A stretch of DNA of 64,000 nucleotides from Candidatus Latescibacterota bacterium (lineage in GTDB: Bacteria; Latescibacterota; UBA2968; UBA8231), in the NCBI GenBank assembly GCA_965197905.1, contig CBDAOB010000005.1, forward strand, positions 1-64,000. Reading direction: 5' to 3'. The position numbers were made by a program. This document shows, piece by piece, positions 12,001 through 24,000 of this stretch (positions within the stretch are counted from its first letter, which is position 1; each line of letters begins with the position of its first letter).

Positions 12001-15000
12001 ATACGTTCTGGGCGATCCAAGGGCTGAGTGGGTGATGGGACAGGTGGAGCGCAAGACCGATCATTACGTGTTCGGTCACCGGGTCGAGGATCGTTGCGCC
12101 GGCATTGTAGGTTATCCCGGTGAGGTCGAGGGCGTACTGGAGAATGAGATGAACTCAACCTACCAGTTGGGCGCCAATGTCTACGGCACCGAGGGGTTGC
12201 TTGAGGTGCGGGACAATAGCCTAAAATATCTCACCAAGGAACGGGCAGGGTGGCAAGTGTTTACACCGGAGGAAGAGGTTCGCACCGGCTACGGCGTCGC
12301 TTTCACCGACCAGGCAAACGAAATCTGTGCGTGGATCGAAAACCGGGTAGATGATTACCGCGGCGACGCCAAGAACGGCAAGGCGGCACTAGAGATCATG
12401 ATGGGGGTGTACGAATCGGCGCGGATGCACGAGAGGGTCGCGTTGCCGCTGCAGACTCGCGCCAATCCGCTCGATGTTGCGGTCGAATCGGGGGTCATTC
12501 CAGTGGAACGACCCGGTGTATGGGACGAGCGCTCATTCCTGGTGCGCGGCGAATCGATGAGCTGGCTCGACTAGATGAGCCTGGCGGCACTGCGGAACGG
12601 CGGCGAATTTCAGACCACTTCGTCGTCCGAATCCATGGCGATGCGAAAGCCGATGGTATCGCGCGTCGTAGTTTCGGGACAACTGCCTCGATGGGTCACG
12701 CGCAATCCGGCCCGCGTTTCCGAGAAGCTGCCCCCGCGAATCACATGCTCCTGACCGCCGTCCGGTCCCTTGGGATTGGATGCGGGGCTGGAACGGTAAT
12801 ACTCGTCGTCGAAATAATCGTTGCACCACTCGTACACATTGCCCGACATGTCCCATATGCCATACGGACTGCGGCCTTCGGGAAACTCGTTCACCGCGAT
12901 CGTCATGCCGATGGTGTTATTCGAGTTGCAGCGCTCACCTTCCACGAATCGCTCGCCCCACGGGTAGGGCCACTCTTCCTGGCCCTTCGCGGCCTTCTCC
13001 CACTCCGCTTCGGTGAGCAGTCGTCCTCCCGACCAATCGGCAAAAGCTCGAGCGTCGATCCACGAGACATTTACCACCGGGTGCTGGCCCATGCCCGTGG
13101 GAAAGGTGCCGCGCTGCCAGTGGATGGGCGGTTTGTAACCGGTGCAGTTGATGAACTCCTTGTAATCCTGGTTGGTCACCGGAAATCTTCCGATATAGTA
13201 GGTGCTGACATGCACCGGGTGGGAGGGGAGCTCATTCTTGGGGCTGTCTTCCTCACGACCGCCCATGATGAATGAGCCGGCCGGTATCTGGGTCATGCGC
13301 CGAGTGTTGGCTTCGGGCAGAATCTCCTTTCGGCGCTCATCGAGCTCGGTCCAGTTGATGTCCATTTCCTCCAGCCGCCGAGCGAGATCCCCCTCGTCTT
13401 CCTGCATCTGCGTCAAACGCTGCCGCATTTCGTTGCGCCGCTGTTCCTGGGATTCGATGCGTTCCATCAGCTGTTGCTGCGGTTTGTTGAATTCCAGTAA
13501 CAGAATCACGAAGTAAAGCATGAAACCGGCGGTGAGAATCCACCAGACCCATCCGCTACCCTCAAACATGATCCAACTCCTGCTCGTGTTGTTGCGGCAA
13601 CTGCCCCAACGGTTTACGGCTTCAAGGCCACGACCTTATGCACCGGTCAACAAATTTAATACAATTGGTCAAAATTCATCATTATATTTTTTCCGGGCTG
13701 AGAATCGACGGATTCCCTGACTTGGAGAGAGAATGGCGAGAAACCCGTATCTGAATCGCTCCATGATCCGCGCTGTGGACCAGTTCTTCGGCAGAAAGCG
13801 CGAAGTAGAACGCATCATGTCGCGTCTGGGCGCCGATCCGCCACAGTCGATTTCGATCGTCGGTGCCCGCCGAGCCGGCAAGTCATCGCTTCTGTGGCAC
13901 ATCGCGCGGGAGGAGATTCACGCCCGGTATCTCGACGCACCCGGCTGCTACGTCTTCCTGCTGTTCGATTTTCAAGGCCAACAACATCTTGACCAGTCAG
14001 GATTCTGCCGGGTTTTGGGTGAGCATCTCAAGGCAGCCTGCGGCGAGCGAGTTTCGATTCCGGATCTGGACAGTTTCGGCGCCATGGAGACCGCGGTGCG
14101 CAATCTGGGTGCGCAAGATTTGCGGCTGGTCTGCCTCTTCGATGAGTTCGAAACGGTGACCCGCAATCCCGGATTCGGGGAGGAGTTCTTCGGTTTCTTG
14201 CGGGCTCTTGCCAATTCGCATCCGGTCGCCTTTGTGACCACCTCACGCCGAGCGCTGCAGTCTCTCTGCCATACCAGCGAGATCTCCGAATCGCCGTTCT
14301 TCAACATCTTTGCCCAGATCGGAATCGGTCCGCTATCCGAAGCCGATGCCGTCGAGCTGATTACCCGGCCCTCCAGTGCGGCTGGAACACCACTTTCCGA
14401 CTACGAAGAGAAGCTCGTTGAACTGAGCGGACACCTCCCTCTATTCCTCCAGATGGCGTGCGCGGCTGCGTTCGAGTGTCTGAATGAGCGGAGCGGCGCG
14501 GAAATGGACCGGTCTTTCCTGCTGGAGCGCTTCATGGAAGAGGCCAGTTCCCATTTCCATTATATATGGGAGCATTTCGGGGATGATGAGCGAGAAGCGG
14601 TCGTGAAGCTGACCGGCGGGACCCTCTCGAGCGTGCGCTCGATTCCGCGTTCACTCCAGGAAGACGGTTTCGTGAGAGAAATCGATGGCCGCCCGCGACT
14701 CTTCTCCACCGCATTTACAGAATTCGTCCTGGAGCAAACGCCTCCCGCAACGGTGGGTGACGAGGCAACCGCCGGTGGCGATTCCAAAGAGCGCCCTCTG
14801 GTCGCAGAATCGCCGGCGCGACCCCAGTCGGGACTTGAACCGCTGCCAGACGGCGAGGACCCCTTCCCACAAATTGTCGGTCGCAGCCCTGCCATTCGCC
14901 TGGTTTTCGCGATGATGAAAAAAGCCGCCGAAGCAGATGATATTGTTCTGCTCACGGGTGAAACTGGTACTGGAAAAGAGCTGGTTGCCCATTGCATTCA

Positions 15001-21000: not shown

Positions 21001-24000
21001 CTCATTCGCGAGCGCGTCGCCTCGCGATTTCTAGAAGAGGCCGGCCCGCATTTCCAGTTCTACTGGGAGCAGATGGGCGCTGTGGAGCATGCGATCTGCA
21101 ATCAGCTGGCTACCGGTGTCGAGGTGGACGACAACCCGGAATACCAGAAACTGCTGCACCGAGGATTCGCCTTGGATAAAGGACGGCTCTTCTCCACCGA
21201 ATTCGCCAACTTCGTCCGCAACACCTATGAGCGGGAAATTGGAAAGGTTCCTCTGGAAGTGCAGGCGGAACGCGCCAGAGGCATGGAAGAAGAGCTGGAC
21301 CGGGCCCGGGAGATGCAGATGGGGTTGCTGCCGCAGGAACAGCCCCAGGCAGATGGATTCGACCTGGCGGGGCGTTGCGAACCGGCGACGCAGGTGGGGG
21401 GGACTTCTACACCTATATATGGCTGGACGAGCCGCACACCCGACTGGCGATTATTGCCGTCGACGTGATGGGGCACGGCATGCAGGGTGCCGTTACCGCT
21501 CTCCGCTTCAGTGAAACCTTGCGCTACCAGGTCAGGGCATCCAGCGACGCGGTGAAAATGCTGGCGGCATTGAATCGGGCGCTGTGCGGCACGCTCAGGA
21601 GCGGCGAGTTCGTGGGCTGCTGCGTGGCGGTGCTAAACGTGGCCGACCGTCAGCTCGAGGTCGCTGCCGCCGGGTATCATCCGCCGCTGCATTACGATGC
21701 CAGTAACGACACTGTGCGCGAGCTCGACCTGGGTAACCTCCCGCTGGGTATCAAGCCGGACACGGAGTATGCGGGCACTTCTTTCGAGCTGGGCAACGAT
21801 GACCGCTTACTCTTCTATTCGGACGGGGTGATCGAAGCTCAGGACGATCGGGAGGTGTTGTACGGAGAAGATCGGTTGCAGGAGCTGTTGCTAAACTGTT
21901 CCCACGAGGGCCTGAATTCGGAGGCGTTGCTCGATCGGCTCTATTGGGATGTAGGAAGGTTTTCGGCGAGCACCGGACAGCAGGACGATACGACCTCGAT
22001 CGCCGTGCGGGTGACCGGCTAGAGCTTGATTGCGGCGACGACGACGCCGCTGAGCGCGATCATCGCGGTGAGCAGTGTGGTGAGCAGAATGGTGAACCGG
22101 GAATCGATGCGCTGGTTGAGCGAAGCACCCATTTGGTCGAAGCGGGCATGAATCCCATCGAATCGCTGGTCAACGGAAGCAGCGGCTTCGTCGAAGCGTT
22201 TATGGACCGCATCGATGCGGACATGTGTTCCGCGAATTTCCTGGCGAAGATCCTGAATATCTTGGCGCAGGTAGGAGATACCCCAGTGGAGCTCTTCGGG
22301 CGGTTGAGGTCTCATCGAATCGGCGTCGGTCAAGATTCGGGTCCTTTGCAGGTGTGCTGCGTACGAAGATACGAAAGCACAATGGGTGCTGCCAACATGT
22401 GGTGGTTTAGAGCAACTGCTGTGCCGGGTCAACCCACTCGACCAACGCCCCCAACACTCGGTTCGACATCGTTGGCGAAAGTACGCACTAGCGGCGCCTC
22501 CAGGTTCCAAGTTCCATGAACGCACGGCGCCAACGCAATATGTTGATCGCGGGAGCATTCTCCCTGGTCCTTGCCTCGTGCCACAATCCGCAGCGCAAGA
22601 ACCCGTTTGATCCCGAACTCACTCCGCCGGTGGAAAACGTCGAGGCTACGCTGGATGGAACCAGCGGCATCGTCGTGGTTGAGTGGGACGCCTACGACGG
22701 CGCGCAGCCGTTTGGACGCTATCTCGTCCTGCGCAAGGTCCAGGGACTGGAAGCGGTTGATACCCTGTCGGTCATCACCGACCCCACGCTGACCCGCTTT
22801 GAAGACACCAGCATCGAGCCGGATACCGACTACATCTATCGGGTAACCGTCGCCAACATCTCAGGTTTCGCCGTCGACAGCGCCGATCTGGCGTTACGTT
22901 CCTTCCGCATTCCCGAGGTTGAGCTTGCGGAGGTGGTGGCCGACAACCTGCAGGGTACCATCATCTTGCGTTGGCAACCCTACCGCGGTCCCCGCTTTGT
23001 GAGTTACACCGTGTGGCGCCGAAGCTTCGGACAGGAGGATCAGCTGCTGGCCCTGGTCGAAGCCGTCGAGGATACGATGTGGACGGACAGCTCGACCATG
23101 CCGGAGACAGAGTACCTCTATTGGATAGAGACTTCGGCGGCCGGCATTCGACGATCCAGCGCCCGGCAGGAAGCTGTCTTCTCGTTGCCGGCGGTAACCC
23201 TTTCGAGTGCGCAGTTCAGTTCCGACTCGGCATCGGCCGATCTGCAATGGACGGCGTACCGGGGTCCTCGCTTTGCCGCCTACGAGGTGCGACGTCAATC
23301 GCGGGACCAGAACGAGCTTTCGGTGCAGGAGCTGACTGACCAAGACGTCCTACAGTTCACCGACACGAGCCTGGATGGCAACACCGAATACACCTATCGC
23401 ATTTTCGTGCGTACCACCTGGGGTTCGGACGTTGGCGTGTTCAGCGCGCCATTGAGCGGCAGCTTCTACAGCCTCGACGAAGTGCGCCAGTTACCCCTCA
23501 TCTTCGATCAGAACTCCGAGATTCAGGCAGTGGGGCTCTGCATGGATGAAGCGAATCAGCTATTCGTTGCCGCTACGGCCATTTCTACGACTACGGCAAG
23601 GGTAATGCAGGATGGTATCGGCGTCCTCTTTCCGGGAGAAACAATCTACAGAGAGTACTTCCAGGAGTTTTTGCCGAGCCGGCTGTCACCCGCGTTTGTC
23701 GCTGCCGGGTTCGGCCGGGTCTACGTCGCCTACGGCCTGGCGTCGGACGGAAGCCTCGTAGGTGCTATCGACTCGGACAAGCTAGAGGATTGGTCGATGG
23801 AAGCGGATACCGGAAGCGAGTTTCCGGTCGGACTGCATTTGGAAGAGGATGGCGAGCTGCTGATGATCGACGCGCAGGGAGGGGTGTTCGGTTTCAGTGC
23901 GGAGGGAACAGCGGCGGAGCCCAACCACCGATTGACCGATGCGCTGGAGCAGGCACTGCCGCTGCAGCACGTGGTGGTCGGACCCGGCGCCGGCCGTGCC

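Follow-up and report, generated by a model that had tools for sequence, protein, structure and literature searches.

We propose, with a probability of roughly 45%, that a sigma-54 activator gene and the neighbouring operon, located in a window of 64,000 nucleotides (the whole stretch of DNA analysed), constitute the transcription-output variant of a transmembrane signalling system whose two partners carry paralogous STAND-like NTPase modules: A, the nSTAND2 module, and B, a divergent paralogue of A carried by a membrane protein with PEGA domains. B would act as the receptor-like partner, with its NTPase in the cytoplasm, one transmembrane helix and four PEGA domains outside. Of the three A modules at this locus, one belongs to the activator, one stands by itself and one is joined to a PP2C phosphatase, decayed in this lineage. 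Whether the tethered AAA+ domains of the activator form the active ring would depend on nucleotide-driven assembly of the A modules, which B, where present, would nucleate or gate. That an activator and a neighbouring membrane receptor have an ATP-switch module in common suggests a hitherto unstudied signalling path linking the cell surface with transcription.

The activator and its STAND-type module

The activator (enhancer-binding protein, EBP; 13733..15805, forward strand) was characterised by Pfam, translation, an AF2 model and Foldseek, and the fusion reported in the preliminary description proved to be real. Its 690-residue open reading frame matched nSTAND2 at residues 34–290 (2.3e-42) and Sigma54_activat at 381–547 (2.1e-68), followed by AAA_lid_14 and HTH_8. 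An A-type module of residues 1–335 (NBD, helical domain and winged helix) is thus joined by a linker (~336–378) to a sigma-54 AAA+ domain with a GAFTDA loop, the lid and the HTH_8 domain, a build which supports replacement of the usual receiver, GAF or PAS domain by a STAND-type module. GAFTDA is the majority loop among nSTAND2-sigma-54 fusions, and is listed as a natural, activation-competent variant in D. vulgaris EBPs, for example DVU2106 (PMC4641369). The genome encodes rpoN.

Walker A and Walker B are intact in the translated nSTAND2 module, and Walker A was present in all four NTPase modules of the locus, as previously claimed. The AF2 model of residues 1–346 (pLDDT 93.1) gave a confident NBD-HD-WHD fold with Foldseek matches to PaBY2304, Cdc6/Orc1 and NLRs, the nearest solved folds being archaeal Walker ATPases (2qen, 2fna) and Cdc6/Orc1, not NLRs. 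The nSTAND2 plus Sigma54_activat build recurred in 38 of 97 family clusters, query included, and the full-length fusion in at least 6 of the 167 further genomes from this phylum, which agrees with the count given before and is a lower bound because at most six candidates were scored per genome. In one of the six relatives, G098, the fusion is split by a frameshift.

Enhancer-binding proteins can be controlled by regulatory domains in cis, such as REC in NtrC and GAF in NorR, or by regulators in trans, as PspF is by PspA. On the accounts given of NtrC, NorR and PspF, the present activator resembles them in its AAA+ sigma-54 module, lid and HTH_8, in having candidate UAS ~100–150 bp upstream of a -24/-12 promoter, and in an N-terminal domain with a presumed gating role in ring assembly or ATPase activity (PMC2941729, PMC7175178). 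Unlike theirs, its regulatory domain is another P-loop NTPase, of STAND type, which has a paralogous membrane partner; our literature searches found no description of a STAND-type NTPase fused to a sigma-54 activator. MalT, AfsR and GutR likewise place a DNA-binding output under the control of a STAND NTPase switch within one polypeptide, but they act at sigma-70 promoters by way of LuxR- or SARP-type domains, and each has a repeat sensor domain of its own. In the present protein the output is an AAA+ motor for sigma-54 in its own right, with no repeat sensor joined to it.

Promoter, candidate enhancer sites and predicted targets

A perfect sigma-54 -24/-12 box of the form TGGCAC-N5-TTGC, TGGCACGGGCCTTGC, was found at 16074..16088 (forward strand), exactly where it had been placed before. 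In the window, 8 matches with no more than one mismatch were counted where 4.7 were expected, and 8 was reached in 9 of 100 shuffles, so that the box taken alone is not above chance; it becomes meaningful because it is conserved in relatives. Homologous boxes stand before the B gene in five relatives, perfect in G105 and G094, the two for which this had been claimed, and in G098, and with one mismatch in G157 and G163.

Two 16-bp palindromes lie ~105–137 bp upstream of the box on the same strand and were scored with a matrix trained on relatives only: candidate UAS site 1, GTCTGGAAAACTGGAC, at 15937..15952 (23.5 bits), and candidate UAS site 2, GTCTGGAATCCCGGAC, at 15969..15984 (20.8 bits), the latter also scoring as a hairpin plus T-run (terminator-like match, 15967–15986). 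Box and palindromes were present in all six relatives carrying the fusion, with 11 palindrome sites among them. Sequence comparison thus supports a conserved sigma-54 promoter and a conserved candidate enhancer standing between the activator gene and an operon of paralogous NTPases. The activator gene had been described as heading that operon; it is instead a transcription unit of its own, upstream of the promoter.

The HTH domain would bind the two palindromes, and the activator would then drive the promoter at 16074, and with it the genes for B, a DUF5683 protein, a solo A NTPase and an A-PP2C fusion. One difficulty is that the receptor gene stands downstream of the promoter attributed to the activator, which requires some basal expression.

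With the same matrix, 10 site pairs were detected in the 6.69-Mb genome, of which three lie 100–150 bp upstream of a perfect box, namely those at 16074, at 27397 and at position 198933 of contig C2. The last two boxes stand ahead of FG-GAP(/ASPIC)/T9SS genes, although the UAS-like sites of the third promoter are weak (9.8 and 11.2 bits). The second pair (27251..27296, forward strand; 27251–27266 and 27281–27296, 17.5 and 15.3 bits) comprises sites 30 bp apart, and the second perfect box of the window (27397..27411, forward strand) emerged from both the box scan and the site-pair scan. Behind it, Pfam and open reading frames define predicted regulon members on the forward strand at 27488..31346: an FG-GAP repeat protein (27488–28639), a protein with a T9SS sorting tail (28757–29407) and a second FG-GAP protein (29715–31346). 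A comparable arrangement was recorded in G153, where two palindrome-type sites, a TGGTGC-N5-TTGC box and FG-GAP/ASPIC/T9SS genes lie 3' of the activator orthologue. On the proposed mechanism the activator very likely also drives the promoters at 27397 and on contig C2, which have the same geometry and precede FG-GAP/ASPIC proteins with T9SS sorting tails. It would thus probably switch on secreted FG-GAP/T9SS proteins as well as the operon of its own receptor.

Genes of the operon

The first gene (16194..18533, forward strand; Pfam, translation, BLASTP and profile-profile comparison) encodes the B-type NTPase with four PEGA domains, the receptor-like partner. The longest open reading frame starts at a GTG (16068) and would take in the promoter, so the in-frame ATG at 16194 was adopted as the start. 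The earlier account of a membrane-spanning, nSTAND2-like protein with four PEGA repeats was borne out: a cytoplasmic NTPase (residues 1–390) is followed by one transmembrane helix (398–416) and the four PEGA domains, and the N-terminal domain is a distant nSTAND2 paralogue by BLASTP (23% identity, 7e-10) and by profile-profile comparison (probability 99.7%, E 4.8e-26).

The start of the next gene (18530..19330, forward strand) overlaps the PEGA gene stop by 4 bases. It encodes an exported protein with a signal peptide, one transmembrane helix, TPR hints in Pfam and the DUF5683 domain already proposed, a weak match of 28.6 bits against a cut-off of 26.7; the gene is kept in G105, G098, G157 and G094. 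The same four relatives (G157 in part) hold orthologues of the solo A-type nSTAND2 NTPase (19327..20367, forward strand; 7.9e-32), and in a tree from a quick search such solo NTPases group in a clade of their own.

Two effector-less NTPases and a separate PP2C phosphatase had been listed for this operon. The solo A protein indeed lacks an output domain, but the supposed second NTPase and the phosphatase (g03632 and g03633) were rejected as separate genes: 20377–21468 and 21375–22022 are two reading frames of a single gene, an A-type nSTAND2-PP2C (SpoIIE) fusion that is a pseudogene in this genome (20377..22022, forward strand). The nSTAND2 match in the first frame (2.4e-31) covers profile positions 1–192 only. 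A -1 frameshift lies in a G7 run (21396–21402) within the VGGDFY motif, 48–49 codons of the helical domain are missing near 21007, and a second run revealed a further 31-bp deletion. The gene is intact in two relatives and was not found in the same-genus genome G098. The operon is thus made up of a B-type receptor, a solo A-type NTPase and an A-PP2C fusion that is now a pseudogene, besides the DUF5683 protein.

This damage, together with the absence from G098, might suggest that the whole system is decaying and non-functional in this lineage, its promoter and sites being relics. Such a conclusion is most improbable, given that four genes (activator, B, DUF5683 protein and solo A) are undamaged and show translationally coupled overlaps, that their products are 87–95% identical to their G098 counterparts, and that box and sites have been retained.

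Transcription from 16074 probably reads on into a gene for an fn3 plus NHL-like protein with a lipoprotein-type signal (22516..24399, forward strand; Pfam). This gene is tied to the system in four genomes, in varying positions relative to it; G105 has the gene in divergent orientation to that of the activator, with a perfect sigma-54 box of its own.

Pairing of A and B modules

All three A modules and the single B module of the genome are in this one locus. In 61 of 80 loci, drawn from several phyla, A and B genes occurred together on the same strand; B preceded A in 54, and the gap was 150 bp or less in 42. One natural single chain, P0172, fuses A to B. Comparison across genomes indicates that A/B gene pairs are widespread and that this locus represents one of their output variants, not a Latescibacterota oddity.

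Pfam scans of 28 B proteins recorded PEGA in 9, Peripla_BP_6/ANF_receptor in 6, CarboxypepD_reg plus Reg_prop in 8 and no further domain in 5, such that extracytoplasmic-type domains (PEGA, periplasmic-binding-protein or propeller) were recognisable in 23. Because the paralogous module so often sits on such proteins, the activator's NTPase module, previously taken for the sensor, is more likely to be a coupling or assembly switch.

The A partners are chiefly Ser/Thr kinases, Pkinase being present on 63 of 73 A proteins. A census of 75 representatives comprised 31 kinases, 6 cyclases, 5 PP2C, 4 TIR, 3 EBPs, 22 without output and single cases of CHAT, FliMN_C, TPR and A+B fusion; a kinase plus caspase build was seen in three of the 75.

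The nearest published relative is the nSTAND2 two-gene operon, in which adjacent genes encode related STAND-like NTPases proposed to form a hetero-multimer, one partner having eroded NTP motifs, with GT4 or HEPN effectors (Kaur, Iyer, Burroughs, Aravind, eLife 2021, PMC8195603). Pfam PF20702, built on that family, matches the three A modules here. Compared with that description, both A and B keep Walker A and Walker B, B is a membrane receptor-like protein, and the outputs are a sigma-54 activator and PP2C, with kinases elsewhere (PMC8195603). The supplement lists nSTAND2+wHTH+TPRs+HEPN, and the main text and 12 of the 13 supplement files yielded no nSTAND2 entry with a sigma-54, PEGA or PP2C domain (PMC8195603).

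That operon was called a predicted counter-invader system (Kaur et al. 2021, PMC8195603), and the TIR, caspase and CHAT outputs of the wider family suit conflict better than they suit simple signalling. One relative also has a second STAND-like activator adjoining a caspase-PEGA gene. As part of a conflict system of the defence or programmed-death type, the activator would induce a defensive response. We nevertheless consider this very unlikely for the present locus: PADLOC defence families gave only weak P-loop matches to the NTPase proteins, no mobile-element genes were seen among the open reading frames scanned (~10–31 kb of the window), most B proteins bear domains of kinds found outside the cytoplasm, the system's outputs here consist of transcription and, in the past, a phosphatase, secreted FG-GAP proteins are the predicted targets, and both partners retain the NTP motifs that the published pair does not (PMC8195603).

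Complex prediction supports a contact between A and B. The pair scored 0.66, against 0.00 for the best of three controls, which were unrelated proteins rather than other AAA+ modules; 116 of 157 solved complexes scored that high, as did 2 of 215 mismatched pairs, counts that hold only roughly because our own alignments were used. Runs shared at least 88% of contacts, with partner pLDDT of at least 79, and family-invariant residues of the predicted interface comprised N16–P23, R59–R60, D85/Q87 and E153 on B, and R157 and S187–F193 on A. The score may reflect generic side-by-side AAA+ packing of homologous modules.

The same contact could carry the opposite sign, with B holding the activator inactive at the membrane until a surface signal frees it, a logic like that of PspA-PspF or MalK-MalT. 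Contact, P0172 and gene pairing would serve this too; as the activator would induce B, the result would be negative feedback, and a B gene behind the activator's own promoter makes such a homeostatic loop natural. Furthermore G153 (93% complete, 260 contigs) holds activator and sites, while protein and profile searches found no B-type NTPase there, the sole match to the NTPase part of the B profile being the activator's own module. B is consequently not obligatory for every member, which suits an inhibitor more easily than a required co-activator. We still regard inhibition as unlikely, since STAND and AAA+ modules usually work through induced assembly and proximity-driven activation is the usual logic for kinases, the prevailing A output.

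G153 also lends itself to the view that the activator's module is itself the sensor, an autonomous cytoplasmic nucleotide or ligand switch for which the operon paralogues are merely targets, as do its intact Walker motifs and confident fold and its close relatives on proteins without an adjacent B (L040, L041, L043). That neither a repeat nor a ligand-binding domain is joined to the module, that its most conserved surface residues fall in the predicted A-B interface, and that A and B are co-located here, adjacent in most loci and naturally fused once, makes this quite improbable.

For the favoured reading, a coupling switch gated by B, sensor/helper NLR pairs and NAIP-NLRC4 provide an analogy for how the system may work rather than a sequence-level membership: paralogous NOD modules, one with a sensor and the other with an effector, co-assemble, but in the present system the partner in the sensor role is membrane-bound and has its further domains outside.

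The activator and its NTPase module

Sigma-54 activators are textbook examples of modular sensing, being equipped with receiver, GAF, PAS, V4R or other input domains, and a STAND-type NTPase in this regulatory role would extend that repertoire by a new kind of input, the gating of one ATP switch by another. The joining of an nSTAND2 NTPase to a complete sigma-54 activator, as proposed in the preliminary description, was confirmed by Pfam: the 690-aa ORF at 13733-15805 matched nSTAND2 at residues 34-290 (2.3e-42), Sigma54_activat (PF00158) at residues 381-547 (2.1e-68), AAA_lid_14 and HTH_8, residues ~336-378 forming a low-complexity linker. 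The Walker A (GETGTGKE) and Walker B (DEIGE) motifs of the sigma-54 AAA+ domain were both read in translation, and the sigma-54 contact loop at residue 456 had the form GAFTDA in place of GAFTGA. Most of the fusion proteins have this loop, which PMC4641369 lists with the natural variants of D. vulgaris that are competent for activation. The HTH_8 match reached 25 bits against a cut-off of 22, and the candidate enhancer (UAS) palindrome pairs were conserved. Sigma-54 itself is present in the genome, encoded by rpoN on another contig (C1:35441-35914). NCBIfam matched the C-terminal part of the activator to sub-threshold equivalogs only (NifA, NorR and others) and gave no match for the NTPase proteins of the locus; the PADLOC 2.0 defence models yielded no system, returning only RtcR-type AAA+ matches to the same C-terminal part and weak P-loop matches.

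The three nSTAND2 modules designated A, carried by the activator, a solo protein and a PP2C-linked protein, scored 145.7, 111.1 and 109.5 bits against PF20702, for which the curated cut-off is 24. Module B, the cytoplasmic part of a PEGA membrane protein, fell below this cut-off and is tied to nSTAND2 by profile comparison only, being in its entirety a divergent paralogue (hhalign 99.7%, E 4.8e-26, 325 columns). The genome holds three A modules and one B, all of them in this locus. An AlphaFold (AF2) model of activator residues 1-346, built from 94 aligned sequences, was confident (pLDDT 93.1, pTM 0.90) and displayed the tripartite STAND build of P-loop domain, helical domain with GxP motif, and winged helix. 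The closest solved folds identified by Foldseek were the archaeal Walker ATPases 2qen (E 4.3e-12, TM 0.64) and 2fna, followed by Cdc6/Orc1 and then by the plant and animal NLRs Sr35, NRC4, ZAR1 and NLRC4. No repeat sensor domain (TPR, WD40 or LRR) was detected by Pfam in the activator, solo A or A-PP2C proteins, sensor-type domains being found on the B partner instead.

The activator fusion is not a one-off. A sigma-54 domain was carried by 38 of the 97 matches to the activator N-terminal part (query included), and the full-length fusion was recovered from six of the 167 further genomes covered in this phylum, and these six belong to one family; the count equals that reported previously and is a lower bound, at most six candidates having been scored per genome. 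In the same-genus genome, G098, the activator gene is split by a frameshift. A metagenome scan deploying an alignment of 37 fusion proteins provided no extra contexts for the fusion, since none of the best 80 loci covered the nSTAND2 module; these loci matched only activator residues ~244-690, and mostly 378-689. The nearest non-activator relatives of the N-terminal module were 569-927-aa proteins at three loci (L040, L041 and L043), where no adjacent B gene was present; their C-terminal halves gave no Pfam match, and similar proteins carry DUF4384. At L043, FG-GAP/ASPIC genes directly follow the nSTAND2 gene.

Two genes for FGE-sulfatase (formylglycine-generating-enzyme-like) proteins precede the activator gene in divergent orientation (10142-11422 and 12610-13569, both on the minus strand), and two such genes likewise occur in G098.

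Downstream genes and the PP2C pseudogene

Four coding units follow the activator: the PEGA protein (16194-18533), a DUF5683 protein (18530-19330), the solo nSTAND2 protein (19327-20367), and an ORF pair at 20377-21468 and 21375-22022. The PEGA protein, with its start taken as the ATG at 16194, has a TM helix at residues 398-416 and four PEGA stretches, and the protein that follows it combines a signal peptide and TPR with a weak match to DUF5683. The ORF pair had been described as a separate NTPase (g03632) and PP2C phosphatase (g03633), a view that had to be abandoned: the first ORF ends in "...ATQVGG" and the second starts with "...GGGDFY", the two being frames of one gene joined at a run of seven G residues (21396-21402). 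In the relatives' genomes G105 and G094, the nSTAND2 and PP2C parts share a single frame and the nSTAND2 part is 48-49 residues longer; the window copy lacks the stretch matching activator residues 211-259, GxP motif included. The PP2C/SpoIIE domain still matched at 4.4e-44, but the frame breaks within the VGGDFY motif, so that no intact catalytic frame remains.

An identical G7 run, without gap, was present in Logan contigs of two studies. One Logan contig, from a run of another study, lacked 31 bp of the nSTAND2-PP2C pseudogene (21304-21334); this closely related population carries a further lesion of independent origin, and G098 lacks the gene. The PP2C arm is therefore a real pseudogene in this lineage rather than an assembly slip. 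A minor Logan contig, roughly 7% divergent, had one extra base at the G run, and there the frame stays open. Programmed slippage at G7 as a means of making the PP2C was rejected in view of the 48-49 missing codons, which include the GxP helical motif, with the deletion in another population and the missing gene in G098 serving as further evidence against it.

The ~500 bp at 22019-22519, between the PP2C remnant and an fn3/NHL gene, contains long ORFs on both strands. Neither the plus-strand ORF (21944/22019-22519) nor its antisense counterpart was accepted as a gene, as both strands lacked a Pfam or NCBIfam match and any GC signal at third codon positions. A sigma-54-like box with one mismatch lies on the minus strand at 22412-22426, and is perfect in G098.

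Promoters, palindromes and the predicted regulon

The perfect sigma-54 -24/-12 box previously noted ahead of the B gene is present at 16074-16088 (TGGCACGGGCCTTGC), and each of the five relatives with a B gene carries a homologous box ahead of it (without mismatch in G105, G098 and G094, with a single one in G157 and G163), though the frequency of the pattern alone is not above chance. A 16-bp palindrome, GTCYGG-N4-CNGGAC, was located upstream in six of six relatives, mostly in two copies (11 sites in total). Under the strict pattern, the sites at 15937 and 15969 constituted the only pair within 80 bp in the 6.69-Mb genome. A weight matrix derived from the relatives only, when applied to the genome, gave 833 single matches scoring 9 bits or more. 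It also yielded 10 pairs with a spacing of 20-45 bp, and three of the 10 sit 100-150 bp upstream of one of the 43 perfect boxes found genome-wide; by our own arithmetic from these counts, the chance expectation for such coincidences is about 0.01-0.02.

The three predicted promoters comprise the UAS pair 15937/15969 with the box at 16074, ahead of the B operon; the pair 27251/27281 with the box at 27397, ahead of two FG-GAP genes that flank one for a T9SS-tail protein; and, on another contig, the pair C2:198786/198816 with the box at 198933, ahead of the gene for a 1109-aa FG-GAP/ASPIC/T9SS protein. In G153, the activator orthologue is followed directly by two palindrome sites, a TGGTGC-N5-TTGC box (read by eye) and two FG-GAP/ASPIC/T9SS genes, and in G105 a divergent fn3/NHL gene has its own perfect sigma-54 box. 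FG-GAP genes also occur near nSTAND2 genes at four loci (L040, L043, L044 and L110). Counting against the enhancer reading, UAS site 2 (at 15969) also resembles a hairpin terminator in a terminator scan; the combined sigma-70 and terminator scan of 13400-27600 gave fewer matches than shuffled sequence, and is hence uninformative.

Just past the third predicted promoter, a short frame at C2:198944-199100 (L118) ends in a T9SS-tail-like peptide (..GVYFYRL..) and resembles the remnant of a gene, placed before the one for the 1109-aa FG-GAP/ASPIC protein. Within the window, three further signalling genes separate its two predicted sigma-54 promoters; they encode a histidine kinase with GAF domain (24483-25778), a stand-alone receiver (25753-26118) and a protein that binds cNMP (26134-26994).

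A/B pairs and a possible mechanism

Of 510 related loci in species genomes, the best 80 were inspected for a neighbouring B gene. In 61 of the 80 it lies on the same strand as A, in records labelled Acidobacteriota, Latescibacterota, Gemmatimonadota, Calditrichota and Eisenbacteria. B precedes A in 54, and in 42 the two genes are separated by 150 bp or less. Contig ends truncate about seven of the 19 loci that have no B. Pfam scans of 73 A proteins (six of the 79 A ORFs, three open-ended and three oversize, being left out) identified 63 with a kinase, three of these also with a cyclase, five activator fusions, and five with no other domain. Equivalent scans of 28 B proteins, picked non-randomly from the 61, gave nine of NTPase-TM-PEGA type, six with Peripla_BP_6/ANF_receptor, eight with CarboxypepD_reg and Reg_prop propellers, and five with no further domain. 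Among 1.84 billion representatives (clusters at 50% identity) there were at least 460 relatives at E <= 1e-30. A census of 75 of these, each 400 aa or longer (another 14 fell below that length and were set aside), recorded 31 kinase, six cyclase, five PP2C, four TIR and three activator outputs, one each of CHAT, FliMN_C, TPR and an A+B fusion, and 22 with none. P0172, a natural A-B fusion, is 35% identical to the activator's module over residues 6-356 (1e-56) and 36% identical to B over residues 370-750 (1e-84). A tree from a quick search only, with SH-aLRT support, parted A from B and placed the activator-, solo- and PP2C-type A modules in three distinct and old clades, all of which include orthologues from the relatives.

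Contact between A and B is supported by complex prediction of the heterodimer, which scored 0.66. Of 157 solved complexes, 116 attained this mark, as against two of 215 mismatched pairs; these counts hold only roughly because alignments of our own were used. The best of three controls scored 0.00, these controls being unrelated proteins rather than other AAA+ modules. The runs agreed in at least 88% of contacts, partner pLDDT was at least 79, and the predicted interface falls on residues invariant in each family, including R157 and S187-F193 of A and N16-P23 and R59-R60 of B.

In Kaur et al. 2021, nSTAND2 is defined by a two-gene operon of paired STAND NTPases, predicted to be a counter-invader system, in which the inactive partner bears GT4 or HEPN; the nSTAND2 table lists nSTAND2+wHTH+TPRs+HEPN, and the two mentions of sigma-54 in the 12 of 13 supplement files searched concern XylR-type neighbours of GT4 genes. 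Whereas one partner of the published pair has eroded NTP motifs, here A (G44, G49, K50; D137, E138) and B (G57, G62, K63; D152, E153) both keep invariant Walker residues, and neither GT4 nor HEPN was found in the 73 A, 28 B and 75 representative proteins scanned, the A proteins and representatives being judged on the best five families per protein. A search of the full-text literature outside subscription papers found no description of a STAND-sigma-54 activator fusion.

By way of a possible mechanism, B would sense something outside the cell and the A module would act as an assembly switch, not as a sensor. Nucleotide-dependent A-B and A-A assembly would set whether the activator AAA+ domains form a ring on the paired palindromes, and that ring would open the sigma-54 promoters that precede the receptor operon and the genes for secreted FG-GAP/T9SS proteins; the effect of B could be of either sign, and solo A could be an adaptor or a competitor. 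In its widest form, to which we would assign a probability of about 0.3, this reading would make A/B STAND-like NTPase pairs a general, undescribed class of bacterial transmembrane signalling, in which a receptor NOD at the membrane templates the assembly of its effector paralogue, as sensor and helper NLRs do; in the present locus, assembly would directly build the sigma-54 AAA+ ring, taking a surface cue to an open complex without phosphorylation and controlling secreted FG-GAP/T9SS proteins. Counting against the proposed mechanism are the use of unrelated proteins as controls in the complex prediction, the TIR, caspase and CHAT outputs that occur in the wider family, and G153 (93% complete), in which the activator is present and B was not found by protein or profile search.

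The paralogous membrane partner makes it testable in E. coli whether NOD-NOD assembly promotes formation of the activator ring or prevents it, and the locus supplies a defined promoter, a predicted 16-bp operator and a small predicted regulon. As such it offers the simplest read-out to date for A/B pairs at large, whose kinase and cyclase outputs have no known targets.

A second STAND-like activator type was observed in the same family: in genome G166, a 689-aa protein (L010:1495-3564, minus strand) combines an AAA_35/nSTAND3-like N-terminal domain with a sigma-54 AAA+ domain and lid, and is followed by a caspase (Peptidase_C14)-PEGA protein (L010:2-1798, minus strand).
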